Shown here: one piece after another, positions 1 through 53,310 of the stretch
Layout: the number at the start of each line of letters is the position of its first letter
Position numbering within the stretch: position 1 is the stretch's first letter
Source of the DNA: Thermoanaerobaculia bacterium
GTDB taxonomy: Bacteria > Acidobacteriota > Thermoanaerobaculia > UBA5066 > Gp7-AA6
Assembly (NCBI GenBank): GCA_038229875.1
Contig: JBBROA010000002.1
Span: 1,713 to 65,712 of the forward strand
DNA: 64,000 nucleotides
Direction: 5' to 3'
Program-made: the position numbers and the translations under genes
Notes under the pieces: model-generated
The model's input: only the letters and a program-made list of their open reading frames with translations
Databases searched by the model: none
Told to the model about the DNA's origin: nothing

Positions 1-3983
<3,983 letters not shown>

Positions 3984-6089: not shown

Positions 6090-6824
6090 TTGGCCCCGCA
6101 GTCCGAGCAGACGCTCCGGGATCGCGTGGCGCTCGTCACGGGCGCCTCGTCCGGCCAGGGCCGCGCGTTCGCGGAGGGGCTCGCGCGCGCCGGCGCCAGA
6201 GTCTTCGCGGTCGCCCGGCGGGAAGAGCTGCTCCGCTCGCTCGTCACCGAGATTTGCGATTCGGGCGGTGAGGCCGCGTATCACGTCGTCGACGTGCGCT
6301 CCATTCCCGCCGTTTTCGACCTCGTGGACGTCGTGCTCGCCCGCTATCGCCGCATCGACATCCTGATCAACGCCGCGGGCATCGGCTACCGCGCTCCGTT
6401 GATCGAGCTCAAGCGGTCGCAGATCGAGGAGATGCTCGCGACCGATCTTGCCGGAGCGATCTACCTGACCTCGGCGGCGCTGCCGTCACTGATCAAGAGC
6501 GCTCCCGCGCACATCGTGAACGTGGCCTCGATCGCGGGGCTCGAGGGGTTCGCCGAGGGCTCGGTCTACTGCGCCGCGAAACACGGGCTCGTGGGCTTCA
6601 CGCGCGCGCTCGCGCAGGAATTGAAACCGCAGGGGGTGCGCGTGACGGCGCTCTGCTCCGGGTCGGTCGACACCGAGTTCTTCGACCGTTTCCGTCCGAC
6701 CACGGAGAAGAGCCAGCGACTGCGGCCGGAAGATGTGTTGGCCGCGCTCCTCGGAATCCTGACGTCGCCGCCGCACGTGCTGCATGGCGAAGTCGTGCTG
6801 CGGCCGAGGGTCGTTCCGGCCTAG
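6090..6824 (+). CDS. SDR-family short-chain dehydrogenase/reductase
   Basis: VALVTGASSGQGRA is the TGxxxGxG motif; NAAG; YCAAKHG is the YxxxK motif. The TTG start at 6090 could instead be GTG at 6126. A TGATAAT -10-like box lies at about 6071. Confidence 0.85.
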   Translation: MAPQSEQTLRDRVALVTGASSGQGRAFAEGLARAGARVFAVARREELLRSLVTEICDSGGEAAYHVVDVRSIPAVFDLVDVVLARYRRIDILINAAGIGYRAPLIELKRSQIEEMLATDLAGAIYLTSAALPSLIKSAPAHIVNVASIAGLEGFAEGSVYCAAKHGLVGFTRALAQELKPQGVRVTALCSGSVDTEFFDRFRPTTEKSQRLRPEDVLAALLGILTSPPHVLHGEVVLRPRVVPA

Positions 6825-6940: not shown

Positions 6941-7633
6941 ATGAGCTCCGTCCTTCTCGTCGACGACACCGGCCTCTTCGACGCTGTCGCCGACGACATC
7001 GCGCGACGGACCCACTGCCGCCCGCTGCGCGCCAGGAACGGGACGGAGGCGCTCGCGACCGCGCGGCGCGAGAAGCCGGACCTGATCTTCCTGGACGCCG
7101 AAATGTCGGGGATGACAGGGATCGACGTGTGTCGGGTACTGAAGGCGGACTCTCACCTCGGGCACCGTCCGGTCGTGGTCGCGGCGGCGACGCCGATCTC
7201 GGCGGACGCGGCCCGCCGCGCCGGTGCGGACGAGTGCATCGACAAGCCCTTCGACACCCCGGTCGTCTTCGACACGATGCGGCGGTACCTTCAGCTCTCG
7301 CCTCGCGACGCGGCGCGGGCGGCGGTCGAGTGGTCGGTGACGTTCTGGCGCGACGGCGCGCAGCACGAGGGCACTCTCCGCGACCTCTCGCGCGGCGGTT
7401 TCTTCATCCGGACTCCCGTGCGCCAACCAGTCGGCGCCAGGCTCGAGATCTCGTTCGAGCTGCCCGGACAGAAAGGCCGGACGGTCGTCGCGGAGGCGAT
7501 CGTGGTGCGCGTCGGGCAGGAATCGGACCGCGGACTCGGGTGCCGGTTCTTCCGGCTGACCGCGGGGTCGCGGACGCACCTCGAGGAGTGCCTGCGGCTG
7601 CTGGAGACGCCGGTGCCGGCGGGAAAGCGCTAG
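6941..7633 (+). CDS. response regulator: receiver domain fused to a C-terminal PilZ (c-di-GMP-binding) domain
   Basis: MSSVLLVDDTG...DLIFLDAEMSGMTG...KP is the receiver part. RDGAQHEGTLRDLSRGGFFIRT carries the RxxxR and DxSxGG PilZ motifs. A TATAAT lies 7 nt before the ATG, so a leaderless start is possible. Confidence 0.8.
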   Translation: MSSVLLVDDTGLFDAVADDIARRTHCRPLRARNGTEALATARREKPDLIFLDAEMSGMTGIDVCRVLKADSHLGHRPVVVAAATPISADAARRAGADECIDKPFDTPVVFDTMRRYLQLSPRDAARAAVEWSVTFWRDGAQHEGTLRDLSRGGFFIRTPVRQPVGARLEISFELPGQKGRTVVAEAIVVRVGQESDRGLGCRFFRLTAGSRTHLEECLRLLETPVPAGKR

Positions 7634-7664
7634 CGGGTCTTCCGCTGACGGAACCCCCCGCCGG

Positions 7665-8117
7665 TCAGACGATCCTCTCCCCCGGCCCCGTTCCCTGCCC
7701 GAGGTCGATCAGCTCGATGCCCGCTTCCCGGGCGACCTGCAGAGACCGCTCGTCCCGGTAGAATTCGCCGTAGTAAACCCGCGCGATCCCGGAGTTCGCG
7801 ATCAGCTTGAAACAGGGCCAGCACGGACTGGCGGTCGTGTACAGCTCCGCGTCGCGGATCGCCACCCCGTTCCGCGCGGCCTGGAGGAGCGCATTCGCCT
7901 CGGCGTGCACGGTCGAGACGCAGTGGCCGTCCTCGACGACGCAGCCGACGTCCTCGCAGTGCGGAAGCCCGCGGATCGAGCCGTTGTAGCCGGTCGAGAG
8001 GATCGTGCGGTCGCGCACGATGACGGCGCCCACGTGCTTCCGTTCGCACGTGGCCCGCGTGGCCACCTGCCGCGCGATGTTCATGAAGTACGTATGCCAG
8101 CCGACGCGTTCGTTCAT
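7665..8117 (-). CDS. dCMP/cytidine-deoxycytidylate deaminase
   Basis: MNERVGWHTYFMNIARQVA...CVSTVHAEANAL...SPCWPCFKLI is the zinc-binding H-A-E / PCxxC signature. The track ORF 7665..9323 is this gene with a spurious upstream read-through. Confidence 0.85.
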   Translation of the reverse strand: MNERVGWHTYFMNIARQVATRATCERKHVGAVIVRDRTILSTGYNGSIRGLPHCEDVGCVVEDGHCVSTVHAEANALLQAARNGVAIRDAELYTTASPCWPCFKLIANSGIARVYYGEFYRDERSLQVAREAGIELIDLGQGTGPGERIV

Positions 8118-8246
8118 GGGCCAATTATGTTCCGACACCGCCGTACGCGAGCCGGGGGTTTCGGCGCCGGGCGCCGTGTCACCATCGCTCTTTGCCTCTC
8201 GGCCTTCGCCCTCCGCCGGCAAGGGCGCGATAGAATTGAGGGTCTT

Positions 8247-9470
8247 ATGGACAAACCCCGGCGCGTCGTCGTCACCGGTCTGGGCGCCGTGACGTCGATC
8301 GGCACGAACGTGACGGATTTCTGGAAAGCGCTCCTCGAGGGGACGTGCGGCATCCGGCCGTTTTCCCTGTTCGATCCTTCCGGTTACCGCACACAGACCG
8401 CGGCGCAGGTCCTGGAGATTCCGGACGGGTTTCTCTCCGCTTCGGAAAGAAAGCGCACGTCCCGCGCCGATCGAATGGGTCTCGCGGCGGCGCGCGAGGC
8501 CATCGCGCAGTCGGGCCTCGATCTCTCGCGGGAGAATCCTGCCCGCATCGGCGTCATCCTGGGAGGCGGGACGTCGGGCCTCCTCGATTCTGAGGCGTAT
8601 TACGAGCAGCACCTTCACGGAAAGAAGGGCCGGCCCTCGCACGTCCTGAACCACCTGCCCGACGCCATTACGGATCGCGTGGCGCAGCGGTTTCGCGTCG
8701 AAGGCATCAAGTCGACGATTACGACGGCCTGCTCTTCGTCGGCAAACGCGATGGGATTCGCGCACGACGCGATCGCGGCGGGGCTGGCGGACGTCATCAT
8801 CACCGGGGGATCCGACGTCCTCGCGCGGCTCACCTACGGCGGGTTCAACTCGCTGCGCTCGGTTGATCCCGAGCCGTGCCGCCCCTTCGACCGGGAGCGC
8901 CGGGGCCTCTCGATCGGCGAGGCGGCCGGCATCCTCGTGTTCGAGGAGTGGGAGCGGGCGAAACGGCGCGGCGCCCCGATCCTGGCGGAGTTCCTGGGCT
9001 ACGGCGTCACCTCGGATGCGCACCACATGACCGCGCCCGACCCGAGCGGGGCCGCCGGAGGGCGCACCGTCCGCTCCGCGCTCGCGGCCGCCGGGATCAA
9101 CGCGGAAGACGTCGATTACGTCAACGCCCATGGAACCGCGACGCCGCAGAACGACTCCGCGGAGACGGCGGCGTTGAAGATGGGACTGGGCGGCCGGGCG
9201 CGCGAAATCCCGATCTCCTCGATCAAGTCGATGATCGGTCATTGCCTCTGCGCGTCGGGGGCGATCGAGGCGGTCGCGACCGTTCTCACCGTCCGGGACG
9301 GTAAGATTCCGCCGACGATTCACTACGACAACCCCGATCCCGCCTGCGATCTCGATTACGTTCCGAACGCCGCGCGGGAAGGCGACATCGAGGTCGCACT
9401 CTCCGATTCGTTTGCGTTCGGCGGCAACAGCTCCGTCGTGGTTTTCGCGCGGGAAGCCGGCGTTTACTGA
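8247..9470 (+). CDS. beta-ketoacyl-ACP synthase, FabF/KAS II type (catalytic Cys-His-His present)
   Basis: MDKPRRVVVTGLGAVTSIG; Cys in TTACSSSANAMG; His in VNAHGTATPQND; His in SMIGHCLCASGAIE; ends FAFGGNSSVVVF. Confidence 0.9.
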   Translation: MDKPRRVVVTGLGAVTSIGTNVTDFWKALLEGTCGIRPFSLFDPSGYRTQTAAQVLEIPDGFLSASERKRTSRADRMGLAAAREAIAQSGLDLSRENPARIGVILGGGTSGLLDSEAYYEQHLHGKKGRPSHVLNHLPDAITDRVAQRFRVEGIKSTITTACSSSANAMGFAHDAIAAGLADVIITGGSDVLARLTYGGFNSLRSVDPEPCRPFDRERRGLSIGEAAGILVFEEWERAKRRGAPILAEFLGYGVTSDAHHMTAPDPSGAAGGRTVRSALAAAGINAEDVDYVNAHGTATPQNDSAETAALKMGLGGRAREIPISSIKSMIGHCLCASGAIEAVATVLTVRDGKIPPTIHYDNPDPACDLDYVPNAAREGDIEVALSDSFAFGGNSSVVVFAREAGVY

Positions 9471-9472
9471 GC

Positions 9473-10609
9473 TTGGCGTCGAGAGGGTGGATCACGGGGA
9501 CGGGCGCCGTCTCGCCCCTGGGGCGCGGCTCGCAGGAGTTCTATCGGCGCCTCCTCGCCGGCGAGACGGCCGTGCGCCCGATGACGGCGGAGGAACGCGC
9601 CGGGCTGCAGGCGACCGAAGTGGCGCGCTGCGACGGTTTTTCGCCGCAGCCGGAGATCCCCCCCATGAAGGCCCGCCGCTTCGACCGCGGAAGCCAGTTC
9701 GCGATCGTGTCCTGTCTCGAGGCGATTCGCGAGGCCGGCTTCAACATCGCCGACGCTCCCGAGGAGATCGGGATCGCAATGGGAACCGGGTCGGCCGGAG
9801 CGGGCGCGTTGACGGAGTTTCTGCGGGTGCTGTTCCTCGAATCGCCGGAGGCCGCGCCGCCGTTCCATTTTCCCAACACGGTCGCGAACGCCCCCGCCTC
9901 GCAGGTCTCCATCGAGCTGAAGCTGTTCGGGCCGAACGTCACGATCACCCAGAAGGATCCTTCCGCATTGAACGCGCTTCTGTACGCGGTTCTGGCGCTC
10001 GAATCCGGGAGGGCGCGCGCGATGCTGGCCGGCGCGGTCGACGAATGGAACGCAATCTACGCCCTCGGATTCGACCGGGTCGGCGCGCTGCGCGGCGAGA
10101 AGCGGCGCTCGGGCATCGTGCAGGGTGAAGGCGGCTTTGCGATGCTCGTCGAGACCGAGGCGGCCGCGCGCCTCCGGGGCGTCCGGCCTCTGGCGAGCCT
10201 CGCGGGAATCGGGTTCGCGGGGGTGCCCACGGACCCGTACCGCTTCGCTCCGGATCCTGCCGCGATCCGCCGGACGATCCAGGGCGCGCTCGACGACGCC
10301 CGCGTCGCGCCCTCAGAGGTCGGGCTGTGGCTCCCCTCCGCAAACGGCGTCGTCGAGATGGACCGCGCGGAGGCCGACGTGATGCGGGAGATTTTCGGAG
10401 CGCCGCCTCGCGCGCTCGCCGTCAAGCACGCGATGGGCGAAGCCGCCGCGTCCGGAGGCGGGCAGCTCGTGGCGGCGACGCGAGCGATCGCGGACCCGGA
10501 CGGGCCGTTCCCGGCGGACGGACGGCCGCGGCGGGCCCTCGTCAACTCGTTCGGCGCCGGTGGAAACTTTCTCGCGGCCGTCCTGGAATCGCCGGCGGCG
10601 GCCGCGTGA
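9473..10609 (+). CDS. ketosynthase-like non-catalytic partner (chain-length-factor analogue; Cys/His/His replaced by Asp/Asn/Glu)
   Basis: TTG start 2 nt after the KS stop. KS fold (ITGTGAVSPLG...FGAGGNFLAAVLE). At the aligned catalytic positions it has TITQKDPSALNAL (C to D), LPSANGVV (H to N), and KHAMGEAAASGGG (H to E). Confidence 0.8.
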   Translation: MASRGWITGTGAVSPLGRGSQEFYRRLLAGETAVRPMTAEERAGLQATEVARCDGFSPQPEIPPMKARRFDRGSQFAIVSCLEAIREAGFNIADAPEEIGIAMGTGSAGAGALTEFLRVLFLESPEAAPPFHFPNTVANAPASQVSIELKLFGPNVTITQKDPSALNALLYAVLALESGRARAMLAGAVDEWNAIYALGFDRVGALRGEKRRSGIVQGEGGFAMLVETEAAARLRGVRPLASLAGIGFAGVPTDPYRFAPDPAAIRRTIQGALDDARVAPSEVGLWLPSANGVVEMDRAEADVMREIFGAPPRALAVKHAMGEAAASGGGQLVAATRAIADPDGPFPADGRPRRALVNSFGAGGNFLAAVLESPAAAA

Positions 10610-11076
10610 GCGCAGTTCGCTCGGGCGCCGCTCCGCTGAAAGGCTTCGAGATCACGATCCCGGTGCGATTTGCGGAGTGCGATTCCTACGCGGTCGTGTG
10701 GCACGGGCACTACGCTCTGTACCTCGAGCAGGTGAGGGAAGCCTTCACACGGCGTTTCGGGTTTACGGCCACGAAAGCGTTGTCGATCGGATACCGCGTG
10801 CCCATCACCCGGATGGACATCCGGTACCGCCGCCCGGCTCTCGCCGACACGGACATCCGCGTCTGCGCCCGTCTTCGACCCCCCGCGGTCGCGCGGCTCG
10901 AGATCGACTACGAGATCCGCGATGCGGGAGGCGAGCTCCTCGCGAGCGCCGTGACTGAGCAGGTCGTCTTGAACGCGTCGGGAGAGCTCCTCCTGGCGCT
11001 TCCGCGCGACCTCCGGACGCTGGTGTCGGAGATGGTCGCATACCAGGAAGATCAGGATAGAAAGGGGATCGCGTGA
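10606..11076 (+). CDS. 4HBT/YbgC-like hotdog-fold acyl thioesterase
   Basis: GTG start overlapping the upstream TGA (GTGA). FEITIPVRFAECDSYAVVWHGHYALYLE matches the 4HBT D-x4-V-x-H-x2-Y motif. Confidence 0.75.
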   Translation: MSAVRSGAAPLKGFEITIPVRFAECDSYAVVWHGHYALYLEQVREAFTRRFGFTATKALSIGYRVPITRMDIRYRRPALADTDIRVCARLRPPAVARLEIDYEIRDAGGELLASAVTEQVVLNASGELLLALPRDLRTLVSEMVAYQEDQDRKGIA

Positions 11077-11642
11077 AGGGGGATCGCGTGAAGGATGCTT
11101 CTCCGGGCCCCGCCGACAACGGGGCCGACGCCGCGGCGAGAAAACGGCGGTCGTGGTTCTTTCTGGCCCGCTTCCTCGGTCTGCTGATCGGCTTCGCGCT
11201 TCTCGTCTCGTGGACCCCGGTAAACGATCACGCCATCGTGCCGTTCACCGCGGGCGTCGCGCATGCATCGGCCGCGGTCTTAAACGTGCTCCAGGAGCGC
11301 GTCAGCGTCGTCGGAACGGAGATTCGGGCGTCCGGCTTCGGTGTCGACATCGAGAACGGCTGCAACGGCGTCGAGACCGCGCTGCTGTTCTGCGCGGCGG
11401 TGCTCGCCTTCCCTGCTTCCTGGAAGGCGCGGGGTATCGGTCTCCTGCTCGGCTTCGTGGCGATCCAGGGCATCAACCTCGTCCGGGTGGTCTCGCTCTT
11501 CTGGATCGGCCGCCACCACCCCGCTCTTTTCTCGAGCGCTCACACGGTCATCTGGCAGTCGGCGGTCGTCCTGGCCGGCGTCCTGCTGTTCCTCCTGTGG
11601 GCCTCCCGGCAGAAGAGCGGGGCCTCTCCCGCAAACGCGTGA
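11073..11642 (+). CDS. minimal exosortase/archaeosortase-family protein (conserved Cys core only, 189 aa)
   Basis: GTG overlapping the thioesterase TGA; an alternative GTG lies at 11088 because of a 16-bp tandem duplication. GTEIRASGFGVDIENGCNGVETALLFCAAVLAF fits the exosortase G-N-x-I-x-L-P-x-G-x-F-x-V-x-E-A-C-S-G pattern. A downstream TM helix carries the N-L-V-R (NxxR) motif. It has 4-5 TM helices. Confidence 0.6.
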   Translation: MKGDRVKDASPGPADNGADAAARKRRSWFFLARFLGLLIGFALLVSWTPVNDHAIVPFTAGVAHASAAVLNVLQERVSVVGTEIRASGFGVDIENGCNGVETALLFCAAVLAFPASWKARGIGLLLGFVAIQGINLVRVVSLFWIGRHHPALFSSAHTVIWQSAVVLAGVLLFLLWASRQKSGASPANA

Positions 11643-12223
11643 CGGTCTCCCGCGCCGCGCGACGCGCGCTCATGCGCGGAGCCGCCGGGTTCGCCGTGGG
11701 TCTGGCGCTCTGGCTCGCCCTTTCCGCGCCCTACGAGCGGGCGGTCGCCTTCGCCGCGGAAGCGCTGCTGCGGCTGGGAGAGCATCCCGCGGTCACGCGG
11801 ATAACCCCTCGCGGCGGCGAGTTCGTGATCGACCGGAGCGATTTTCCTCCAGCCGCCCCGCGCCCCGGTCTCCCCGCCGCGGATCTCCACTTCAACCTGG
11901 TGATCCTTGCCGCGCTGCTCGCCGCGCTTCCGCCAGCCAGGGGCTCGCGCGTTCTGCTTGCGTTCGCGCTGCTGTACGTCGTGCACGTCGTCGCGCTCTG
12001 CTGCCAGGTGGAATCGCTTTACGCGACGCGGCTCGGGGCCTGGAGTGAGGCAAACTACGGGGCTTTTGCGCGCAACGCGTGGGCGGCCGCTTTCCACGTG
12101 TACCAGATCGCCGGACGATTCGCAGCGCCGTTTGCAATCTGGTGGCCGCTCGCCTGGCGGGAGCCCGCGGATCCGGAAGTCAGGAAAGGTCCGGCGAGAG
12201 GGAAGAAAAAGGCGAAGAGATGA
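11639..12223 (+). CDS. hypothetical polytopic membrane protein, last gene of the KS/CLF/TE/exosortase operon
   Basis: GTG overlapping the upstream TGA (GTGA). It has 3-4 hydrophobic helices and a basic tail RKGPARGKKKAKR. I recognise no domain. Confidence 0.45.
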   Translation: MTVSRAARRALMRGAAGFAVGLALWLALSAPYERAVAFAAEALLRLGEHPAVTRITPRGGEFVIDRSDFPPAAPRPGLPAADLHFNLVILAALLAALPPARGSRVLLAFALLYVVHVVALCCQVESLYATRLGAWSEANYGAFARNAWAAAFHVYQIAGRFAAPFAIWWPLAWREPADPEVRKGPARGKKKAKR

Positions 12224-12251
12224 GGAGTCCCGGGCAACCCGGGAAAGCCGG

Positions 12252-13328
12252 CTACGGGCGCTTGTTGCGGTCGCGGCGCAGGTAGCGGTAGTCGGGGACC
12301 TGATACTCCTTCAGCTTCGCGATCAGCGAGCCGCGCGAGATGTTCAGGACTTCCGCGCCGCGGCTCTGATTTCCCTGTACGCGGCGCATCGCGCGGTCGA
12401 TGACCTCGCGCTCGACGGTCTCGACGATCTTCTTCAGGTCGTCGGTCTGCCGCAGGACGGCGTCGATCTCATCCTCGTTCGGAGGCTCGACGACGACAGG
12501 CGAGGGCACCTCGGCGGGCCCTCGCTCGGAGCGGCGGACCGCGATTCCCGCCAGCTGGGCGGCCTCTTCGAGGAAAAGGATGGTCCTTGCGGGAAGCCTT
12601 GGGCTCTCGCGGACCAGGATCGCGAAGGCGCCGTCCGAAGCCGCGTTCTCGACAACCAGAGTGAGCACTCCGGCGACGCTTTCGGAGCGAACCACACGCT
12701 CGCCCCCGCGGACCTCCTCGAGAAGGCTCGGAGGAAGCGCCGGCTGGTCGACGAACGTCGAAGCGAGAAACCGGAACCCGTTTGCCGCCGTCACGTGGCC
12801 GACCGCCCACTCGCGCGGGGCGAATTCCTGATCCAGAAAATCCGTGAGAGCGATCGCGACTTCCTCCGGGCTGTCGTGCTGCCGGCACAGGCGGTAGGCG
12901 GAAAGCCGCAGGGCGCGATATTCGACTTCCGTCGCTGGCGCGGCAGACGCCTCAGGGGAGGACGATGACACGTCGTTGATGGGAATCTCGTGGACCGGCG
13001 CGGGCCGCCCGGGGTTGCTGCCGACCTGGACAACCGTGATGGTCGCCTCTCCGATCGTGATGCGATCGCCCGCCGCGATCGGCCCGCCCGAAAATTCGCG
13101 GCCGTTCACGGTGATGGCGTCGACGCCTTTATAGAGGTCGAGCTGGTAGCGGCCGTCCTTCTCGACGAAACGGATGTGGCGGCCAGCAACCCCACGCGCT
13201 CGAACGACGACTTCGTTGCCGGAAGAAGCGCCGACGGTGATCGCCGTGCCGAGCACGCGGTGCAATTCCGCCCCTCCCGCTCGTTTGCGGACTTCCAAGT
13301 TCAGCATTTTTGTCTTCTTGTCCGTCAA
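12252..13328 (-). CDS. FHA-domain transcriptional regulator with C-terminal Fis-type HTH
   Basis: The N-terminus ITVGASSGNEVVVRARGVAGRHIRFVEKDGRYQL is an FHA domain. The C-terminus RGAEVLNISRGSLIAKLKEYQV is a Fis-family HTH. The middle looks GAF-like. Confidence 0.72.
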   Translation of the reverse strand: MTDKKTKMLNLEVRKRAGGAELHRVLGTAITVGASSGNEVVVRARGVAGRHIRFVEKDGRYQLDLYKGVDAITVNGREFSGGPIAAGDRITIGEATITVVQVGSNPGRPAPVHEIPINDVSSSSPEASAAPATEVEYRALRLSAYRLCRQHDSPEEVAIALTDFLDQEFAPREWAVGHVTAANGFRFLASTFVDQPALPPSLLEEVRGGERVVRSESVAGVLTLVVENAASDGAFAILVRESPRLPARTILFLEEAAQLAGIAVRRSERGPAEVPSPVVVEPPNEDEIDAVLRQTDDLKKIVETVEREVIDRAMRRVQGNQSRGAEVLNISRGSLIAKLKEYQVPDYRYLRRDRNKRP

Positions 13329-16400: not shown

Positions 16401-17102
16401 GAATTCGGTGTGCCGCCGGCCTCCCTGGATGCTCCGGAAGATCGCTCTCCCGAGGCGCTCACGGCCCTCGAGGAAGAGGTCGCGACGCTCGCGGCGTCCA
16501 TCGAGAGACTCGGACCCGTCAACCTCCTCGCGCTCGAGGAGCATCGCGAAAGCTCGGAGCGGCTCCTCTTTCTGACCGCGCAGCGCGACGACCTGTTGAA
16601 ATCGGTGGCCGAGCTCCAGGATTCGATTCGCAAGATCAACGCGACGTCCTCGGAACGCTTCCGGCAGGCGTTCGAGGCGGTCAATGAGAACTTCAAGGCG
16701 ATGTTCTCGCGTCTCTTTCAGGGAGGCGCGGCCGAGATGCGCCTTCTGGACGACAACGACCTTCTCGAGTCCGGGGTCGAGATCATCGCGCAGCCGCCCG
16801 GAAAGCGAAACCAGTCGATTCAGCTTCTTTCCGGAGGCGAAAAGGCGCTGACCGCGATCGCCCTGCTGATGGCGATCTTCCGCTACAAACCTTCCCCGTT
16901 CTGCATCCTCGACGAGGTCGACGCTCCCCTCGACGAGGCAAACATCGACCGCTTCACGAAGCTCCTCCGCGACATGACCGACGACACGCAGTTCATCGCG
17001 ATCACCCATAACAAACGGACGATGGAAACCGCGGACGTCATGTACGGGGTCACGATGGAGGAGCCCGGCTGCTCGAAGATCGTCTCGGTTCGGTTCGACT
17101 GA
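13497..17102 (+). CDS. smc: chromosome segregation protein SMC
   Basis: MFKLERVQISGFKSFYEKVDLAFPGSVTAVVGPNGCGKSNISDA (Walker A); long coiled coils; a C-terminal LSGGEKALTAIALLMAIF...ILDEVDAPLDEAN signature/Walker B. Confidence 0.92.
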   Translation: MFKLERVQISGFKSFYEKVDLAFPGSVTAVVGPNGCGKSNISDAVSWALGEQSAKTLRGERMDDVIFNGSARRRPLGMCEVILTLSTRARVSARQDGKSNGDGDGADGGGENGHGAGNGNGNGGSETDGDLLRIGRRVYREGTGEYFLNDKQVRLKDIQDKLLGTGLGVRAYSVIEQGRIDQVLSTKPQDRRRLIEEASGITRYKLKKRLAEGKLEETRGNLLRISDIVSEIEKNVASLKRQASRAAKYREQSDALRGKKAALARTRHDVLQAAVAEAERTRDARRDVEAAAAAALGRAESELAAARLAAADLQAERDRLRDAVAALENAIQRDDALLEGNRRAAADLADRRASLEREGRDVAAEHTRSAAELTELEERLERAVAEARSRSLAREDADSRAAAGASAFSELERELDRAREDALLAAGERVTARNARHEVDLEASRATASLARLEEAHARAVSELALREKEVEAALEEERRLTREAADARAETEAWEAELSRLAGALAESEVARETAREGLSISEHRLGALNEIWKSRQGNLHAVRGALATAGIAEAGALADRLMPAVGWEEAVDLLLGEDLEAIVCGGDPEAAVEASRGLASATFVRSGWTDERGASRVAGTEGGWEIALQNFNSLSPAERAALPPVALVSTFAAALELSGIHPETTFVTRRRELVRGSLVRVVHTPPEASGLFALRRDIDRLGLETARARESVAALDRSIEDLRRARHECEAAMPARRDREREASGRLSGFVARFEERRAERDRLARERETLETEAVALRQESERLAGARSALEADERAHGTREASIRERAEKLASALPEARSFAAAAADELAHRRTEAEVAAERRRSLETAREKLVEARGILERRMGDAFEEGRRLTERAEELAREESEARARQAENIRARETASEELEAASATATEAGTSVLTAEDGTKVERATLDAAREARFEAEVGETRIRSDFDHATAQAQDEFGVPPASLDAPEDRSPEALTALEEEVATLAASIERLGPVNLLALEEHRESSERLLFLTAQRDDLLKSVAELQDSIRKINATSSERFRQAFEAVNENFKAMFSRLFQGGAAEMRLLDDNDLLESGVEIIAQPPGKRNQSIQLLSGGEKALTAIALLMAIFRYKPSPFCILDEVDAPLDEANIDRFTKLLRDMTDDTQFIAITHNKRTMETADVMYGVTMEEPGCSKIVSVRFD

Positions 17103-17174
17103 CGGCGCGGACGAGCCCGGTTCCGAGTCCCGCCGGGGCGAAGAGAGAGGCTCCTCCGGGCGCCCTTTCCGGCC

Positions 17175-17203
17175 GCTGACAAGCGCAACCGTCCCTGCTA
17201 AGA
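17175..17203 (+). promoter_or_regulatory. putative sigma70 promoter for tRNA-Thr (CTGACA - 17 nt - TAAGAT)
   Basis: The -35-like CTGACA and the -10-like TAAGAT are spaced 17 nt apart. The -10 ends about 20 nt before the mature tRNA 5' end. Confidence 0.4.
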
Positions 17204-17222
17204 TCCGCCGTCCGGTCATCCC

Positions 17223-17298
17223 GCCGACGTAGCTCAGTTGGTAGAGCAGCGGTTTCGTAAACCGCAGGTCCCCGGTTCAAATCCGGGCGTCGGCTCCA
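17223..17298 (+). tRNA. tRNA-Thr (anticodon CGU)
   Basis: The read is GCCGACGTAGCTCAGTTGGTAGAGCAGCGGTTTCGTAAACCGCAGGTCCCCGGTTCAAATCCGGGCGTCGGCTCCA. The 7-bp acceptor stem GCCGACG/CGTCGGC closes it. The D-loop reads AGCTCAGTTGGTAGAGC. The anticodon loop reads TTCGTAA. The T-loop reads GGTTCAAATCC. CCA is encoded. Confidence 0.9.
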
Positions 17299-17407
17299 TC
17301 ACCCGCTTCGGGCGTCGCGGTCCGCGTCGCGACGGCCGGTTCCCCCCGGAATCGTCCCGGCCTCACAATGCGGTGAGACGCCATTGCATCCGCGACGAAG
17401 GAGATCC

Positions 17408-17704
17408 ATGCGGATCGCTTTTCATGCCTTGCGGGCCGGCAGCCGGTTCGGCCGCCTCTTCACCGCCGTGGCGCTCTCTCTGGCGCTCCTGACCGTGCCC
17501 GCGTGCCACGGATCTGGCACCCCGCGACCGAAACCGTCAACGCTCTCGCCCGCGCGGCGAGGAATCCACACCTACCACTTGCGGCTCGGCGTTCGGGTTT
17601 CCCGAGCGGCAGTCAGAGATCCAATCACTAGTTCCAAACGAAGGACATTGACGTTCTTCGAGGGCTTTCCGGTCACCCTTCGGAAGCCCGAACCCGACTG
17701 CTAG
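17408..17704 (+). CDS. possible small secreted protein or lipoprotein (98 aa)
   Basis: AAGGAG Shine-Dalgarno 5 nt before the ATG. MRIAFHALRAGSRFGRLFTAVALSLALLTVPAC is a signal peptide with a Cys at a lipobox-like position. Confidence 0.3.
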   Translation: MRIAFHALRAGSRFGRLFTAVALSLALLTVPACHGSGTPRPKPSTLSPARRGIHTYHLRLGVRVSRAAVRDPITSSKRRTLTFFEGFPVTLRKPEPDC

Positions 17705-17976
17705 CCCCCGGCTGCGGCGGAGTCGGCGGAACGAGGCTAACCTGCTACGGCGGCCCGGAGGGAGTCTGTAGAAGTCGAAAAGAGATTCTCCGCGCGTATC
17801 TGGAGAAGCTCGCCGTGCGCGGTAAGGCTAAGGCCGCTAAGTACTCGACCATTCTTAGTATCAGGGTTTTCGCATCACGCGACCGTAAACCCTGACGAGG
17901 ACAATAAAGATCGTCAAGACGGCCAAGATTAATAAGACTTCAGGTAACCCGATCCGTCCAAACATAAGCGTCCCCC

Positions 17977-20340
17977 TTACCGTCCGCCGGGAGTAACGAA
18001 GCCCGGCCGGTCCTGTTGCCATGCGAGGCTGACGCCAGTCGTCATCGGAACGCCAATGATTCCGATCATGTCTTTGACATCTTTGTAAGGGTCGTAGCGG
18101 TTAGCGGCATCTCCGCCCGGTGAAAGCGCTAGGACCACGTACGATCCGGGAGAGAGCAAGTCACAGGCATGTACCTCGGAATTCATGTCAGGCTGCATTA
18201 ACGATTCGATTGACAGCCCGTTAGCAGCCGCGGCCTGCCGAAGCACGGAAATGGGTATTTCCATCCCGTTCCTGACGAAAAGCAGAATAGCGTCTCGACG
18301 TGGAACCCCGAGCTTCCCGAGCACCTTGAGGCCCGGACCTGAAACAAATGGCGACAAAGTTAAAGTTAACGTGTTTGTCTTCTCATCCGCAGACGGATCG
18401 GCGCTGGCGGGTAAGAGGGCGGTTTGAACGGTGAATCCAGGGGCGAATACGTAAACGGGGAGCATTTCCCCCGCCAGCTCCTCGAGGACAAGCTCACCTT
18501 GCCCGTCCGTAACACCGAGCGAGCGCAGCGGAGCCAGGCGAGGCGCCATGCGACGCGGATGGACCGGCACCATTACTTGCGCATTAGGAATGCCTTCGCC
18601 CCTGAGATCTCGAACGGCGACTCTGAACGGGGCCGCCTTGTCCAAATCGATCTCAAGGTTCCGAGTCTCCGTGCCAAGAGCGTCGACAAGGAGTTGTTTT
18701 CGCGAGTGGCCCTCGGCTCTTCCGGCGATCGTCAAGGTCCCGTCCTCGAGATCTCCGAAGGACGCTTTCCCGAACTCATCGGTGGGTTTCGTTTCCGAGC
18801 GGTGCTCTCCCGCCAGGCTTTCAAAGCTGGCATCCAAGAGCCCCGGAATGGGGCGGCCCGATGAGCGGTCTCGGAGGGTTACTGCGACAGTTCCACCCCT
18901 GAAAACGATATCGAAAAGCGTCTCGGGTTCCTTCGCCTCAACGCTACCCCCTCGGCGCGTTCCGTCCGGAAGCGACGCCGAAACGTAGACATGACATGCG
19001 CACCCTACAGTCAACGCGTAGCTACCATCTGCGCTCGAGATCGTTTCGCCTAACGTCGTACTCTCTTGACCCATGATTCTGGCGAACGGGATGATTCTGA
19101 TCGCGGCGTCAGCTGCGGGTTGGTCCCCGCGAAGTACCCGCCCTCTGACCACTCTCGAAGCAAACACCACTGTGAGACTTGGGTTCTCGGCTGTCGCGAC
19201 GTCCACGTCTTTTTCGCCGTAAGCCCACAAGCCGGCGGCTTTTCCCTCAGCCCTGTAATGCCCCGACTCGGAGATGGGTATCTCGACACTGTTCCCTTGG
19301 GCGAGATCACCTCGCCAGACGATTGTTTCGGAGCCCCTCCTGGTTACTTCCAACGCGTTGGCTGACGTAACGTTCTCTGTGATCTTCTTGAGGACGACAT
19401 TCACGTCGCCAGCAAGGGGCGAATCTGATTTCGCGCTCACCACCAATTTTGGAAGTGTTCTGAGTGCGATGTCAAAAAATCGGTCCCCCTGTGCCCTCGA
19501 AATCTCCCTGGCATTGACCTCCGCCGGACGATAACCTGCCACTCGGACATTCCAGGAATGAGGCACTTCGGGGAGACGATCTACGACAACATTTCCCGAA
19601 GCGTCTGGACGGAGTGTCCGAGATTCTAACCAGAGCGCGACCAGCCGCCCAGAAGCGGTTGATCCGGCAGAAACCCAGTTCACAGTGATTCTTGTCACAT
19701 CGCCGGGAGGTGGTCGAAGACGGATCGTTTCAGCGTGACCCCGTTGAGAGATCGGCGACGCAAGGCTCCTCGCTTCGCCCGGAAGTAGGGCAAGATCGGG
19801 GATGATGGCGGGGGCGGACTCGCCATCATCGAACAAAACGTCCCACCGGTCGGGTGGAAGAACGAACGCGACTACGCTTGGCGATGGCGATGACGTATCG
19901 GCTCGCATCTCCCGGCGCCCGTCCTGAGAACGTGCCACCAAAAGAGGGGGATTCGTCGCCCGAACCGGTCTTGGCAGCCTGATTTGCAGTGTAGCGAGCG
20001 CGTTGAATGTTACGGGCTGTCGCCATTGAGCCCGGGGTAGAGTGACGACATCAAACCCGGGCGCGGTGAGCGTCAGCTCGGTCATTGACTCTTCAACCGG
20101 CAGGACTATCGTATCGGCGTGCGGCGTCAGGATCTGGTCAAATGTGCGAATCCCCTTCACGCCGGCGCCGACTACACGGATCGACTTGGAAGCGGATCGG
20201 CCTACCCATCGGAGCGAGAGTCTGATCTGGCGGATCGATGCCTTTTCCGAGCCCGCCTGACTCGGGTTCGGTGGCGAAACGGGCTGGGAGGAAGTGATAG
20301 CCGCGAAAAAAAAGATGGTGGCAGCGCCGAGGTATCCCAT
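17977..20340 (-). CDS. large secreted protein with multiple carboxypeptidase-regulatory-like (CarbopepD_reg) Ig-like domains
   Basis: GGAGGA Shine-Dalgarno. Signal peptide MGYLGAATIFFFAAITSS. Repeated RGRVLRGDQPAADAAIRIIP...SADGSYAL modules. TAA stop. Local GC is about 55-58% against roughly 69% background. Confidence 0.7.
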   Translation of the reverse strand: MGYLGAATIFFFAAITSSQPVSPPNPSQAGSEKASIRQIRLSLRWVGRSASKSIRVVGAGVKGIRTFDQILTPHADTIVLPVEESMTELTLTAPGFDVVTLPRAQWRQPVTFNALATLQIRLPRPVRATNPPLLVARSQDGRREMRADTSSPSPSVVAFVLPPDRWDVLFDDGESAPAIIPDLALLPGEARSLASPISQRGHAETIRLRPPPGDVTRITVNWVSAGSTASGRLVALWLESRTLRPDASGNVVVDRLPEVPHSWNVRVAGYRPAEVNAREISRAQGDRFFDIALRTLPKLVVSAKSDSPLAGDVNVVLKKITENVTSANALEVTRRGSETIVWRGDLAQGNSVEIPISESGHYRAEGKAAGLWAYGEKDVDVATAENPSLTVVFASRVVRGRVLRGDQPAADAAIRIIPFARIMGQESTTLGETISSADGSYALTVGCACHVYVSASLPDGTRRGGSVEAKEPETLFDIVFRGGTVAVTLRDRSSGRPIPGLLDASFESLAGEHRSETKPTDEFGKASFGDLEDGTLTIAGRAEGHSRKQLLVDALGTETRNLEIDLDKAAPFRVAVRDLRGEGIPNAQVMVPVHPRRMAPRLAPLRSLGVTDGQGELVLEELAGEMLPVYVFAPGFTVQTALLPASADPSADEKTNTLTLTLSPFVSGPGLKVLGKLGVPRRDAILLFVRNGMEIPISVLRQAAAANGLSIESLMQPDMNSEVHACDLLSPGSYVVLALSPGGDAANRYDPYKDVKDMIGIIGVPMTTGVSLAWQQDRPGFVTPGGR

Positions 20341-20398
20341 TTGTCCTCCTCAACCCGTCGCCAGAATGTCGAATACAGTCGAACCTGAACGCTGACTG

Positions 20399-20767
20399 TT
20401 AATAGAGAGGCGATCGCATCAGGCATCCACCGTAAAGATCGGTCCACCAGCAGTCCAATCCAGGGCCGTATAAGGGATCACGATCCGGTCGGTTGTCAGC
20501 CGGGCCGTAATATTCGCACCTGTTCCCATTGGAGTTGCACTGGGGCCAAGGCGACATGAAGGTGTAGCAGTGATCGGTTCCCGGCGGGTCTCCATATGTG
20601 ACCGTGGCGCAAAACCCAGTTTGGAGCGTCTGGGTTCCGAGCTGTATCTCGTTGCAGGCTTCGCAAGCCGTTGCCTGCGTTGGATATAGCATCAACAAGA
20701 GCAGAGCTCCACTCAGAACGAGAAGACTTCGAGGGACCTTTCCCCCGCCCGGTCGGTAAGGACGCAT
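20399..20767 (-). CDS. small cysteine-rich secreted protein (8 Cys, about 90-aa mature peptide)
   Basis: AGGAGG Shine-Dalgarno 6 nt before the ATG. MRPYRPGGGKVPRSLLVLSGALLLLMLYPTQATA is the signal peptide. The mature part is ACEAC...GFC...DHC...PQC...NRC...LDC...GGC. It is co-directional with, and 58 bp upstream of, the large CarbopepD protein. Confidence 0.6.
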   Translation of the reverse strand: MRPYRPGGGKVPRSLLVLSGALLLLMLYPTQATACEACNEIQLGTQTLQTGFCATVTYGDPPGTDHCYTFMSPWPQCNSNGNRCEYYGPADNRPDRDPLYGPGLDCWWTDLYGGCLMRSPLY

Positions 20768-21268
20768 ACGCCCCCTCCTAATAGATCTGCGACACCAAAA
20801 GGATGCCGGATCTGACACCTTCTTGTCGCGAGGATCCAGAGACCGTAAGGCACCCCCCAATTGACGGTTGCGCAGAGGCCGTTCACACGAGAGTCGTCGT
20901 CTTGACCCGAACGCGACTGCAGTCGCCCCCTCGTCCTTCGTTGCCTACGGAGAACCAAAAGGACTCCCCCAACGTCCCCACAGTGGCACCGGGCGGCTAC
21001 GCCTCCGGGCGTCCCCCAACCCCGGGGCACTCCCCCCAGACTGCCGGACACGAGAACGAAGGCTGGTGGGCACACACCGAGCAGGGTTTACGCCGCGACA
21101 AACCCCCTCCGCGAGCTTTTTCCCCTGCTGAAGCTCTGGTGGTGTACGCTATCGTACATTAAAGCCGCCGCTGGCCTCTCCCGCATCGTTTCCACCCTCT
21201 CCGAGCGGCTCCTGGAAGGTCCGCCTGTCCGCGATTTTGAGGCATCCGCGCCCTGGCCGCGGAGAAGT

Positions 21269-22009
21269 GTGCCGACGGAACGGCGGATCGCGAGGGCGCC
21301 TTACGCGTCCGATTCGGGCCCGGAAAGAAGGCGGATACCCGGCGCGGCGACCGACGCGCGCGCTCTCGTCGTCGAGGACGACCCGGACCTGAACGAAGCG
21401 ATCTGTTTCCTGCTGGCGAGCGACGGATTCCAACCTGTCGGGGTCTTCAACGGCGCCGAAGCGCTGGCGGTCCTGGCGGATAAGACCGCCCCGCTCCCGT
21501 CCGTGATCCTCGCCGACCTCGCGATGCCGGTCATGAATGGATGGGAGCTCCGCGCGCGGCTCGAAGCGGACACTCGCGTCTCCCGGATTCCCCTGCTGGT
21601 CCTCTCGACGTTCGTCGATGACAACGTCGAAGTCTCCGGTGAACGCCCTGAAATGCAGCTGTCGAAACCCTTCGGCGCTGAAATGCTTCTGCTCTGCGTC
21701 AATCGTCTCGTGGGACCGCGGGTCGGCGTGGGACGCGCGCGCGTCTTCGAGAATCTCGTCTGCCGCCTTTCTAAAGATCAGAGCGCGGTCTCATTCCTTC
21801 TCGATGAAGACGACAAGCTACCCCTCTTTTCTCTGCCCGTCCGCCGATTCTCGATTCGCATCCTGCGCGAGATTGCATCGGGGTTGGTGCGTGGCAGCGT
21901 CGGGGCTCCCGAGCTCGGGGGGACGCGCCGGCTGCTTCTCTCCCGTACCTGGGGCGGCGCGGAGATCTTGAGCCGCTTCGAAGAGATTCGCGTCGACGGC
22001 GATCCCTGA
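21269..22009 (+). CDS. response-regulator receiver-domain protein with an uncharacterised C-terminal extension
   Basis: ALVVEDDPDLNEAICFLLASDGF...ILADLAMPVMNGWEL...LLVLS...KP is a receiver domain. GTG start. I see no recognisable output domain. Confidence 0.65.
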   Translation: MPTERRIARAPYASDSGPERRRIPGAATDARALVVEDDPDLNEAICFLLASDGFQPVGVFNGAEALAVLADKTAPLPSVILADLAMPVMNGWELRARLEADTRVSRIPLLVLSTFVDDNVEVSGERPEMQLSKPFGAEMLLLCVNRLVGPRVGVGRARVFENLVCRLSKDQSAVSFLLDEDDKLPLFSLPVRRFSIRILREIASGLVRGSVGAPELGGTRRLLLSRTWGGAEILSRFEEIRVDGDP

Positions 22010-24608: not shown

Positions 24609-24716
24609 TCGATCGATGTCGAGCGTCGACCCTTCAGCGACTCGTCTTTCCCCGTACCCTTCCCCCGGACAGTTTCCGCCGCGCGCGCGAAATGCACGCA
24701 ACTCCCTTCGGGCCTT

Positions 24717-24951
24717 CTCACCCCGACCCTCTCCCCGAGCGCGGACAGAGGGAGGTGGCGTCTCTCATCTCAATCTCGAATACGCTCGCCCGGAGAGGAG
24801 TCTCCTGACCGAAGGGAAGGAGGAGCCTCTCCGGGCGGGAGCGAAGCGAGCGGAGGGAGAAGGCGGGCGGTCGAAGGCCGCACCCGGCCGAGCCGCCCGC
24901 CGGTGCCGTTCGCGGCCGCGAACGGCAGCTCCCGGAGCGAGCGGAGCGACG
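24717..24951 (+). repeat. structured dispersed repeat, copy A (about 235 bp)
   Basis: About 85% identical to copy B. Internal hairpins are CCCTCTCC...GGAGAGGG, GGCGGGCGG...CCGCCCGCC and GCCGTTCGC-GGCC-GCGAACGGC. It lies in the 5' region of the DGQHR gene. Confidence 0.75.
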
Positions 24952-24984
24952 TTCTATACTCCCCCCAAAGATAAGGGGGCCAGG

Positions 24985-40924: not shown

Positions 40925-40962
40925 CGCGAAGGCGCCGGCGGCGGAGCGGCGGCGGGAAGCTC

Positions 40963-41892: not shown

Positions 41893-41935
41893 GACCGAAT
41901 ACTACCGTCGCATCCGCCACGGCGGGCATGGCGCG

Positions 41936-41985
41936 CCACCTCCCTCCCCGCGCCCGGGGAGACGAGCGGGGTGAGGGGGCTCGGC
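41936..41985 (-). repeat. reverse-orientation fragment (copy D) of the structured repeat
   Basis: The reverse complement reads GAGCCCCCTCACCCCGCTCGTCTCCCCGGGCGCGGGGAGGGAGGTGG. This matches the 5' module of copy C, CGCCCCCTCACCCCGGCCCTCTCCCCCGGCGCGCGGGGAGAGGGAGCGG. Confidence 0.55.
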
Positions 41986-42013
41986 CCGCTCAGAATGCGA
42001 CAGTGAAACGGCG

Positions 42014-47812: not shown

Positions 47813-49179
<1,367 letters not shown>

Positions 49180-49183
<4 letters not shown>

Positions 49184-51721: not shown

Positions 51722-51818
51722 CGCGTCACTTTCGCGCCCTTCTCGAACAGTCAGATTCAGAGGAAGCTCCTCGGCTCCGAGACGCTCGCCGCGGAACGCT
51801 GAACGCTCAACCCTATTC

Positions 51819-53288: not shown

Positions 53289-53310
53289 GCCCGAAGTCCT
53301 CCCATGCGCG

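Follow-up and report, generated by a model that had tools for sequence, protein, structure and literature searches.

A catalytically dead ketosynthase homolog as a probable chain-length-factor-like partner of a FabF-like ketosynthase in Thermoanaerobaculia

The gene that follows a FabF-like ketosynthase (KS) gene in a 64,000-nucleotide (64-kb) stretch of Thermoanaerobaculia DNA, here called the window, encodes an intact KS fold with a dead active site (Table 1). We give a probability of roughly 75% to the reading that this KS homolog without a catalytic triad, the dead KS, does no catalysis itself and serves as the chain-length-factor-like half of a heterodimer whose other half is the live KS encoded upstream. 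Dead KS partners have long been regarded as a hallmark of aromatic polyketide synthases (PKSs). The dead-partner design as such is known already; what we describe here is its occurrence in Thermoanaerobaculia and its coupling to a protein-sorting gene.

Table 1. Operon genes and key residues, in positions of the window
Feature	Position	Strand	Remarks
Live FabF-like KS	8247..9470	+	Operon gene 1; 407 aa
Live-KS Cys162	8730-8732	+	Catalytic residue
Live-KS His295	9129-9131	+	Catalytic residue
Live-KS His332	9240-9242	+	Catalytic residue
Dead KS (KS homolog without catalytic triad)	9473..10609	+	378 aa; TTG start
FPNTV motif (Phe133-Val137) of dead KS, helix-loop-helix	9869..9883	+	Predicted contribution to partner's acyl tunnel
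Asp162 codon GAT of dead KS	9956..9958	+	Position of catalytic Cys
Ser289 codon TCC of dead KS	10337..10339	+	Position of first catalytic His
Glu323 codon GAA of dead KS	10439..10441	+	Position of second catalytic His
4HBT/YbgC-type hotdog thioesterase	10606..11076	+	GTG start overlaps dead-KS stop (GTGA)
Exosortase H (XrtH)	11073..11642	+	GTG start overlaps thioesterase stop (GTGA)
Probable XrtH-associated membrane protein	11639..12223	+	Last of block; GTG start overlaps XrtH stop

Fold, active site and conservation of the dead ketosynthase

Pfam detected both KS halves in the dead KS (PF00109, 3.8e-23; PF02801, 3.1e-7). Its AlphaFold2 model (pLDDT 93.1, pTM 0.94) was FabF-like, with Foldseek TM scores of 0.88 to 0.91 to FabF structures. 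On the Pfam, AlphaFold2 and Foldseek evidence alike, the protein belongs to the thiolase-fold beta-ketoacyl synthase superfamily. BLASTP aligned it with the adjacent live KS at E 1e-23; the two are only 26% identical and both genes have closer relatives in other clusters, and we rejected a recent tandem duplication of the adjacent KS.

The catalytic positions were aligned with BLASTP, with MAFFT and with a HMMER alignment to the Thermus FabF 1j3n, and all three agreed. Cys162 of the live KS (TTACSSS) lay opposite Asp162 (TITQKDPS), and His332 (GHCLCASG) lay opposite Glu323 (GEAAASGG), both as originally predicted. The first catalytic His had been predicted to be replaced by Asn. We found instead that NAHGT lies opposite LPSAN and that its His pairs with Ser289 in all three alignments; the aligned strings given with the prediction already place Ser there. 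Asn291 pairs with the Thr two residues past the His, and this position is Asn in 41 and Asp in 44 of 85 orthologs. The replacement set is Asp/Ser/Glu, not Asp/Asn/Glu, and the view that it is unusual has to be dropped, as Glu or Asp, Ser and Glu are the commonest residues at the three positions in the clade of dead partners.

The live KS also has Lys327 and a gating Phe, Phe391, in a GFGG loop. In the dead KS the gating residue is Ala362 (Ala in 81 of the 85 orthologs), and the catalytic Lys is retained as Lys318 (83 of 85). With the Cys, both His residues and the gating Phe all gone, the protein is not an active elongating KS of the FabF/FabB type, in agreement with the earlier statement that it is not a condensing enzyme. 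We ruled out that a better alignment would restore Cys/His/His, since the three aligners and the PDB alignment were concordant.

The replacements are themselves conserved. Asp162 was kept in 83 of 85 orthologs (the exceptions being Gln in L002 and Glu in L003), and Ser289 and Glu323 were each kept in 84. Median identity over 80 species genomes was 74% for the dead KS, 80% for the live KS and 66% for the thioesterase encoded downstream. The dN/dS ratio of the dead KS was 0.07 to 0.19, roughly double the value for the live KS and close to those of neighboring genes. Since these residues are near-invariant and dN/dS is low, we conclude that the dead KS is a selected protein. Loss of every catalytic residue, together with a 19-residue stretch near the C terminus that is missing relative to the live KS in the MAFFT alignment, might have been taken as the mark of a decaying relic, or of an assembly or sequencing artifact, of a once-active KS. 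That reading is refuted by the conservation and dN/dS data. The reading frame is intact, an identical protein (P0001) is in the public record, and more than 80 species-level orthologs, 68 to 97% identical, share the same replacements, so a sequencing error or pseudogene was rejected.

Probable pairing with the live ketosynthase and the exosortase H operon

The live KS matched both KS families in Pfam (PF00109, 1.5e-40; PF02801, 2.4e-38). It scored 415.9 bits against the NCBIfam fabF model TIGR03150, under the cut-off of 493.75, and 413 against PRK07314, over the cut-off of 387. Its top PDB matches were FabFs (5.6e-102), with chain 9s5h_B third (9.5e-94); the actinorhodin (act) KS-alpha gave 2.1e-74.

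As the original prediction had it, the dead KS starts 2 nt 3' of the live-KS stop (TGA, 9468-9470). The spacing becomes a 4-nt overlap in the L002, L004 and L087 loci. The live KS gene lay directly 5' of the dead KS in all 77 evaluable genomes. Natural fusions of the two were found in 53 of the best 150 family representatives (50% identity); these proteins are about 800 aa long, with Cys-His-His in the N-terminal half and a dead C-terminal half. The proposal that the dead KS is a partner of the adjacent live KS is thus supported by tight gene coupling, invariant adjacency and fusion, and also by the nearest solved structure, most likely amxFabFmut (see below), which is one chain of a two-KS heterocomplex. 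We conclude that the dead KS very probably partners the live KS next to it. In the broad sense of a KS homolog that lacks the nucleophilic Cys and is coupled to a live KS, it is a chain-length-factor-like partner.

A phylogeny of the KS pair, run as a neighbor-joining tree, grouped all Cys-bearing KSs with the FabFs and placed the dead partners outside them. The KS and partner branches were roughly parallel, which suggests that the KS and dead KS are an old pair. The dead-KS clade is very large and almost unstudied; its commonest signature is Glu/Ser/Glu, and fusion to a live KS is frequent among its members. The FPNTV motif was invariant in the 85 orthologs, and its Phe, Thr and Val were present in 54 of 71 single-domain representatives. 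In the L003 cluster, identities to this locus were 53% for the KS, 35% for the partner and 40% for the thioesterase. The clusters of more distant relatives resemble aryl polyene gene clusters, with LolA, MMPL, acyltransferase and ApeI/ApeP-like dehydratase genes. In a plasmid collection, the dead-KS query returned only matches of about 30% identity to KS-family genes, including an annotated fabF.

Three further genes follow the dead KS, each starting within the stop of the one before (Table 1). The thioesterase matched Pfam 4HBT_2 (1.4e-12), and its PDB matches were the thioesterases 1z54 and 6fdg (about 3e-9). It was 3' of the dead KS in 77 of 77 evaluable genomes, with a start codon available at the −4 overlap position in 65 of 79 loci, so that in Thermoanaerobaculia (Acidobacteriota) live KS, dead KS and 4HBT thioesterase are always together among evaluable genomes. 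XrtH scored 116.2 bits against TIGR04177 (cut-off, 86). It stood next after the thioesterase in 61 of the 72 species genomes that could be evaluated, and a −4 overlap between the two existed in 46 of 65 loci. The probable XrtH-associated membrane protein scored 28.5 bits against NF041730, under the cut-off of 35, and was present in 64 of 84 loci. The five genes form an operon in most Thermoanaerobaculia, and its neighborhood, between genes for a dCMP deaminase, SMC and a YdjM-family protein, was conserved in all 80 species genomes sampled. The class is one of uncultured soil bacteria.

Within the 64-kb window we found no ACP, ketoreductase or dehydratase gene and no IPTLxxWG-CTERM substrate; for ACP, neither tblastn searches with four ACP queries nor a scan for the DSL motif gave a match, and there was no PP-binding domain. 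A promoter and terminator scan of positions 7600-12500 gave no signal over shuffled background. The XrtH query found only distant XrtM matches in the plasmid collection, and among the matches listed in the protein search there were only Thermoanaerobaculia XrtH proteins. Our literature search returned one passing mention of exosortase H and no mention of 9S5H, the IPTLxxWG signal or Thermoanaerobaculia ketoacyl synthases.

Comparison with known chain length factors

The best PDB match of the dead KS was 9s5h_C (2.5e-30 when searched with the sequence alone, 2.3e-106 when searched with the family profile). Chains C and B of this entry are most likely the anammox proteins amxFabFmut and amxFabF2; we equated 9s5h with the preprint structure by sequence features, which fit Brocadia amxFabFmut, the PDB code being absent from the preprint text. 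The preprint describes its anammox system as the first chain length factor (CLF) of a fatty-acid-type pathway (bioRxiv 10.64898/2026.05.19.726425). Brocadia amxFabFmut is inactive alone and copurifies with amxFabF2; its Phe135, Thr138 and Val139 line the tunnel of the live subunit, and their mutation shifts chain-length preference (bioRxiv 10.64898/2026.05.19.726425). Like amxFabFmut, the dead KS is full length and FabF-like, lacks a working triad, has Glu for the second His and the FPNTV tunnel motif, and is encoded next to a live FabF homolog in a context that is FabF-like rather than aromatic PKS. The two are not orthologous, however. They are only about 30% identical and fall in separate clades of the neighbor-joining tree; the anammox set is Val/Asn/Glu, with Val, Ile or Phe at the Cys position across that clade, and in anammox bacteria the gene for the dead copy comes first, the opposite of the order here. 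The anammox pair belongs to ladderane Cluster I, with its own ACP, FabZ and radical SAM genes, whereas the neighbors here are a thioesterase and exosortase H, with no amxACP, amxFabZ, radical SAM or other ACP gene. Orthology of the amxFabFmut type was ruled out by the separate clade and the different neighboring genes.

Iga12, the CLF of the ishigamide Iga11/Iga12 pair (PDB 6kxd) from a highly reducing type II PKS, is also full size, with the same length as the dead KS (378 aa), and also partners a FabF-like KS; the chain made by Iga11/Iga12 is reduced and non-aromatic. Residues 7 to 371 of the dead KS matched Iga12 at E 4.6e-15, but the dead KS matches FabFs better, and Iga12 comes from a secondary-metabolite cluster of an actinomycete, in which ACP and tailoring genes are included. 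The act CLF, or KS-beta (PDB 1tqy_B; 7.2e-19), is likewise a KS homolog without Cys whose gene follows and is coupled to that of KS-alpha, and the act pair is heterodimeric. It has Gln at the Cys position, as some Thermoanaerobaculia orthologs do, where the dead KS has Asp; no ACP, cyclase or aromatase is encoded near the dead KS, and the live KS is closer to FabF than to act KS-alpha. Having Asp162 in place of Gln and no minimal PKS cluster in the 64-kb window, the dead KS was rejected as a classical aromatic type II PKS CLF. Nor is it a malonyl decarboxylase of the KSQ type, which has Gln and keeps both His residues; the three positions here are Asp, Ser and Glu.

The original prediction had also named ApeC, the aryl polyene CLF, as a comparator. 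Like the dead KS, ApeC is a catalytically dead protein that goes with a live KS; its partner is ApeO, and the type II system they serve is a reducing one. It is, however, about half the size, with a single thiolase half (PMC8358021), whereas the dead KS, at 378 aa, contains both halves by Pfam and was modeled as a complete FabF-like fold. As a half-size CLF, ApeC is a poor comparator, and a CLF of the ApeC type was excluded by size and domain content.

Proposed function and its alternatives

We propose that synthesis of the dead KS is matched to that of the live KS and that the two assemble into a 1:1 heterodimer, in which the dead subunit supplies the second half of the thiolase-fold dimer. 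The live subunit alone, through Cys162, His295 and His332, would carry out acyl loading and condensation with malonyl-ACP. The helix-loop-helix of the dead subunit (FPNTVANAPAS) would form the far wall of the acyl tunnel and select chain lengths or shapes, and its vestigial pocket (Asp162, Ser289, Glu323 and Lys318) would be chemically idle. The co-translated 4HBT thioesterase would then free the product from its carrier, with ACP and any reducing enzymes supplied from elsewhere in the genome.

The dead KS had been described beforehand as a structural or decarboxylase-like partner. The partner part of that description has stood up, and the decarboxylase-like part has lost its support because both His residues are gone. 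In classical type II PKS CLFs and in KSQ loading domains, the Gln has been proposed to serve in the decarboxylation of malonyl-ACP. A priming subunit of this kind, in which the dead copy would decarboxylate malonyl-ACP to start chains with Asp162 in Gln's stead, would fit the Gln at the Cys position in L002, P0125 and P0131, a sister branch and the only Thermoanaerobaculia branch that has it. We consider it very improbable. A carboxylate would imitate the amide of Gln poorly, Ala has replaced the gating Phe, and both His residues, which stabilize the enolate in the established KS mechanism, are replaced by Ser and Glu. Although the anammox heterodimer does decarboxylate malonyl-ACP, this activity requires the live subunit, the dead subunit being inactive alone (bioRxiv 10.64898/2026.05.19.726425). 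The same system bears on whether the dead KS might act without its neighbor, for example in regulation, or by binding acyl-ACP or lipid as a homodimer. Scalindua amxFabFmut crystallized alone is a homodimer, but the anammox helix-loop-helix, disordered in the lone homodimer, becomes ordered only in the heterodimer (bioRxiv 10.64898/2026.05.19.726425). Conservation of the vestigial pocket residues and Lys318 would suit such a stand-alone, non-enzymatic role; the unbroken adjacency to a live KS and the common natural fusions argue against it, and we regard it as very improbable.

A different question is which pathway the pair would serve. It might be the housekeeping elongating KS of Thermoanaerobaculia fatty acid synthesis rather than part of a specialized lipid or polyketide-like pathway, in keeping with its conserved core-genome neighborhood, the similarity of the live KS to true FabFs and the absence of a dedicated ACP nearby. 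This seems unlikely, given that the live KS falls below the FabF equivalog cut-off, that a co-translated thioesterase is unexpected where acyl-ACP is to be supplied for phospholipids, and that relatives occur in aryl-polyene-like clusters with their own ACP, dehydratase and glycosyltransferases.

Under the chain-length-factor-like reading, an anammox-like design is fixed in the core genome of a whole uncultured class of Acidobacteriota. Since the dead partner also comes from a large clade, this would widen the range of KS/CLF-type heterodimers beyond secondary metabolism. The translational coupling to exosortase H is conserved and could tie the making of lipids to protein sorting that depends on an exosortase. 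More specifically, though we hold this only tentatively and think it rather doubtful, KS, dead KS and thioesterase may make a dedicated acyl or lipid moiety that XrtH and the membrane protein use in processing and anchoring their substrates. If so, this would offer a first handle on the attachment target of exosortase substrates, and FabF-like KS/CLF pairs would gain a new physiological role. KS, partner and thioesterase form a compact three-gene unit that could be expressed to find the product.

At the Cys position, an acidic residue recurs across the family: Asp here and Glu in many relatives, with Gln in some Thermoanaerobaculia orthologs. Such a conserved acidic residue could do more than fill space.

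Replaced catalytic residues of the dead KS

The dead KS, a ketosynthase (KS) homologue of 378 amino acids, is encoded by an uninterrupted open reading frame (ORF). It begins with a TTG codon 2 nt past the TGA stop codon (9468-9470) of the FabF-like live KS, so that both the ORF and its spacing were as originally predicted. Both KS halves were recognized by Pfam (PF00109, 3.8e-23; PF02801, 3.1e-7), and BLASTP aligned the protein with the live KS at 26% identity (E 1e-23).

The live KS has a complete catalytic set: Cys162, His295, His332, Lys327, and the gating Phe391. We matched the residues of the dead KS by BLASTP, MAFFT, and HMMER alignment to Thermus FabF (1j3n), and all three agreed. Asp162 stands at the position of Cys162, Ser289 at that of the first His (His295), Glu323 at that of the second (His332), and Ala362 at that of Phe391; the Lys is kept as Lys318. 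The predicted changes of Cys to Asp and His to Glu therefore stood, but the predicted change of His to Asn was a register slip. Asn291 pairs with a Thr two residues past the His, and its position is Asn in 41 orthologues and Asp in 44. Since the three alignments gave the same replaced residues, a better alignment does not restore Cys/His/His.

Sequencing errors were also considered. A protein identical to the dead KS is present in public records (P0001), and among 85 orthologues Asp162 was conserved in 83, Ser289 in 84, and Glu323 in 84. The dN/dS of the dead KS against close relatives was 0.07 to 0.19, roughly double that of the live KS and in line with neighbouring genes. The replacements are thus not errors, and the protein is real and selected. 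Its FPNTV motif (Phe133-Val137) was invariant across the 85 orthologues.

Positions of the KS pair, the genes that follow it, and other features of the window
Feature	Position (nt)	Strand	Remark
Live KS	8247-9470	+	First gene of block
Dead KS	9473-10609	+	2-nt gap to live KS
FPNTV motif of dead KS	9869-9883	+	
4HBT/YbgC thioesterase	10606-11076	+	GTGA overlap with dead KS
Exosortase H (XrtH)	11073-11642	+	TIGR04177, 116 bits (cut-off 86); GTGA overlap with thioesterase
Probable XrtH-associated membrane protein	11639-12223	+	NF041730, 28.5 bits, below cut-off of 35; GTGA overlap with XrtH
SDR-family oxidoreductase	6090-6824		5' of operon
Low-GC stretch	17000-22000		
DndB-like protein	24616-26109		
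Agmatine deiminase to threonine operon	39902-46760	-	
Sigma-54 response regulator	47813-49183		
Glycolate-oxidase-like set and malate synthase	49180-54888	-	

Owing to the high GC content, ORFs in the mechanical list overlap or reach spuriously far in the 5' direction (228-3983, 7905-9470, and 10327-11076). The true starts lie further downstream: an ATG at 8247 for the live KS, 10606 for the thioesterase, and well inside 228-3983 for the M1 peptidase.

Conservation of the five-gene block

We surveyed gene context with one genome per species, finding 433 relatives and using the best 80, all of which were Thermoanaerobaculia or Acidobacteriota metagenome-assembled genomes (MAGs). Among these best 80, the live KS lay 5' of the dead KS and the thioesterase 3' of it in 77/77 evaluable loci each, and XrtH followed the thioesterase in 61 of 72, while 11 genomes had the KS pair and thioesterase (the triad genes) without XrtH there. 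A start codon occupied the -4 overlap position at 65/79 dead KS/thioesterase junctions and at 46/65 thioesterase/XrtH junctions. In the window, where the five genes are closely packed, three GTGA stop/start overlaps tie translation of XrtH and the probable membrane protein to that of the triad genes. The block sits in conserved housekeeping surroundings (M1 peptidase, YdjM-family gene, SDR, response regulator with a PilZ domain, dCMP deaminase, FHA-Fis regulator, and SMC). The SDR gene was kept at the site in 56/84 loci; between it and the operon are the PilZ-domain response regulator and an oppositely oriented dCMP deaminase. No acyl carrier protein (ACP), ketoreductase, or dehydratase was found within the 64-kb window.

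The nominal substrate motif of XrtH, a C-terminal sorting signal of the IPTLxxWG type, was found in no protein encoded in window positions 1-64000. Either the substrates are encoded elsewhere in the genome or this lineage uses a different motif.

The family of dead partners

When the dead KS was searched against all 1.84 billion cluster representatives, 131 matched at E <= 1e-30. Among the best 150 matches, from which the residue statistics were drawn, 53 were fusions of about 800 amino acids with a Cys-His-His N-terminal half and a C-terminal half that lacks the triad and is the part matching the dead KS. Another 71 were single-domain proteins, in which the Cys position held Glu (24), Phe (11), Asp (9), or Gln (4), the first His was Ser in 34/71, and the second was Glu in 46/71; Glu/Ser/Glu was the commonest combination. 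By these counts, the triad of the dead KS is ordinary for its clade, a large one of dead KS partners in which Asp/Ser/Glu is a less common form of the usual signature and no oddity; the set originally predicted to be unusual was Asp/Asn/Glu. The Phe, Thr, and Val of FPNTV were found in 54/71 single-domain relatives. Public annotations call the family [quoted passage not shown] or simply FabF.

Close relatives (40 to 97% identity) all came from Thermoanaerobaculia or Acidobacteriota MAGs. Gln, the classical residue of a chain length factor (CLF) at the Cys position, occurs in two deeper Thermoanaerobaculia branches, one represented by protein P0125 and the other by protein P0131 together with the orthologue in locus L002 (10001-11146). 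L002, a Thermoanaerobaculaceae contig, holds a bare pair about 1 kb from phosphatidylserine decarboxylase and synthase (CDP-alcohol phosphatidyltransferase) genes. A second bare pair, overlapping by 4 nt, lies in an uncultured Desulfosarcina genome (L087, 8760-11218) with no ACP or thioesterase near it; such pairs are therefore not confined to Acidobacteriota.

Relatives at 35 to 39% identity (L003, 7098-14525; L085, 5980-14548) lie in a fuller cluster that encodes a polysaccharide deacetylase with DUF3473, an acyltransferase, an ACP, an ApeP-like dehydratase, KS, dead KS, a 4HBT thioesterase, a methyltransferase, and two glycosyltransferases. Perhaps the complete pathway is seen here, with the Thermoanaerobaculia triad genes as a reduced form. 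In the P0152 locus and in L086, the surroundings, which include LolA, MMPL, and acyltransferase genes, resemble aryl-polyene gene clusters.

In a neighbour-joining tree with no bootstraps, every sequence that has the Cys, the N-terminal halves of fusions among them, grouped with FabFs, and the dead partners fell outside. The tree, the 26% mutual identity of live and dead KS, and the identities of the L003 cluster to the window genes (KS 53%, partner 35%, thioesterase 40%) rule out a recent tandem duplication.

A probable role like that of a chain length factor

The AlphaFold2 model of the dead KS (57-sequence alignment; pLDDT 93.1, pTM 0.94) superposed on FabF structures with TM scores of 0.88 to 0.91. 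Its top solved chain by sequence was 9s5h_C (2.5e-30 with the single sequence, 2.3e-106 with a family profile), and the second KS chain of that entry, 9s5h_B, ranked third for the live KS (9.5e-94), behind Listeria FabF. In 9s5h_C, Val replaces the Cys, Asn and Glu replace the two His residues, and FPNTV lies at 134-138. Since the PDB code is absent from the preprint text, we infer from sequence that this chain is amxFabFmut of Brocadia fulgida, with a one-residue offset (bioRxiv 10.64898/2026.05.19.726425). amxFabFmut and its live partner amxFabF2 co-purify; neither is active by itself, but the pair decarboxylates malonyl-ACP and produces acetoacetyl-ACP. Phe135, Thr138, and Val139 of amxFabFmut line the acyl tunnel of the live subunit, and mutations of Phe135 and Val139 shift chain-length preference (bioRxiv 10.64898/2026.05.19.726425).

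The dead KS is nearest in kind to such full-length dead partners of FabF-like KSs, namely, amxFabFmut, with which it has FPNTV in common, and Iga12 of the ishigamide system (6kxd_B), also of 378 amino acids (E 4.6e-15). It and amxFabFmut are not orthologues, as it falls in a Thermoanaerobaculia-only clade apart from the Val/Ile/Phe clade that holds amxFabFmut and has different neighbours. Nor is it a classical KS-beta, which it differs from in lacking the Gln and nearby ACP or cyclases, or an ApeC-type protein, ApeC being half-size (PMC8358021).

The dead KS is best read as working like a CLF, the noncatalytic half of a KS heterodimer (probability about 0.75). The data show that the triad is lost and the fold kept, that the protein is under selection and its gene coupled to that of the live KS, that such pairs occur as natural fusions, and that the tunnel motif is shared; formation of the complex, control of chain length, product release, and the product are inferences. 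The live subunit would do all the chemistry; the dead subunit would complete the dimer with its own pocket inert, and its FPNTV helix-loop-helix would wall off the acyl tunnel and so set chain preference. Release would most likely fall to the co-translated thioesterase, and the fatty acid synthase of the cell would lend the ACP and whatever reductive enzymes are needed.

Of the structural or decarboxylase-like partner originally predicted, the structural one is the likelier. Gln at the Cys position in sister branches would suit a priming decarboxylase, but the loss of both His residues makes this role very improbable for the dead KS. That the dead KS acts on its own in binding or regulation is unlikely, because a live KS is always adjacent and natural KS-partner fusions exist. 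At the level of the pathway, we rather doubt that the pair is the housekeeping elongating KS of the class, as the live KS scores below the FabF equivalog cut-off and the attached thioesterase argues for a specialized role. Three points are novel: the dead KS is fixed in the core genome of a whole class of uncultured bacteria, no dedicated carrier protein lies near the KS pair in the 64-kb window, and co-translation of the triad genes with XrtH is conserved, the last being the most interesting lead.

Elsewhere in the window, a stretch with a GC content of 0.59 to 0.62 (versus about 0.68 elsewhere) holds a 787-amino-acid protein with a carboxypeptidase-regulatory-like domain, and just beyond it lies the gene for a DndB-like (DNA-sulfur-modification-associated) protein; the region may be acquired DNA. 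A glycolate-oxidase-like set (two FAD-binding subunits and an Fe-S/CCG subunit) sits beside malate synthase, and the window also encodes a sigma-54 response regulator. A polyamine route is suggested by agmatine deiminase and N-carbamoylputrescine amidase-like genes, after which comes a threonine operon with a threonine synthase-like PALP enzyme, homoserine kinase, and a fused aspartokinase-homoserine dehydrogenase.
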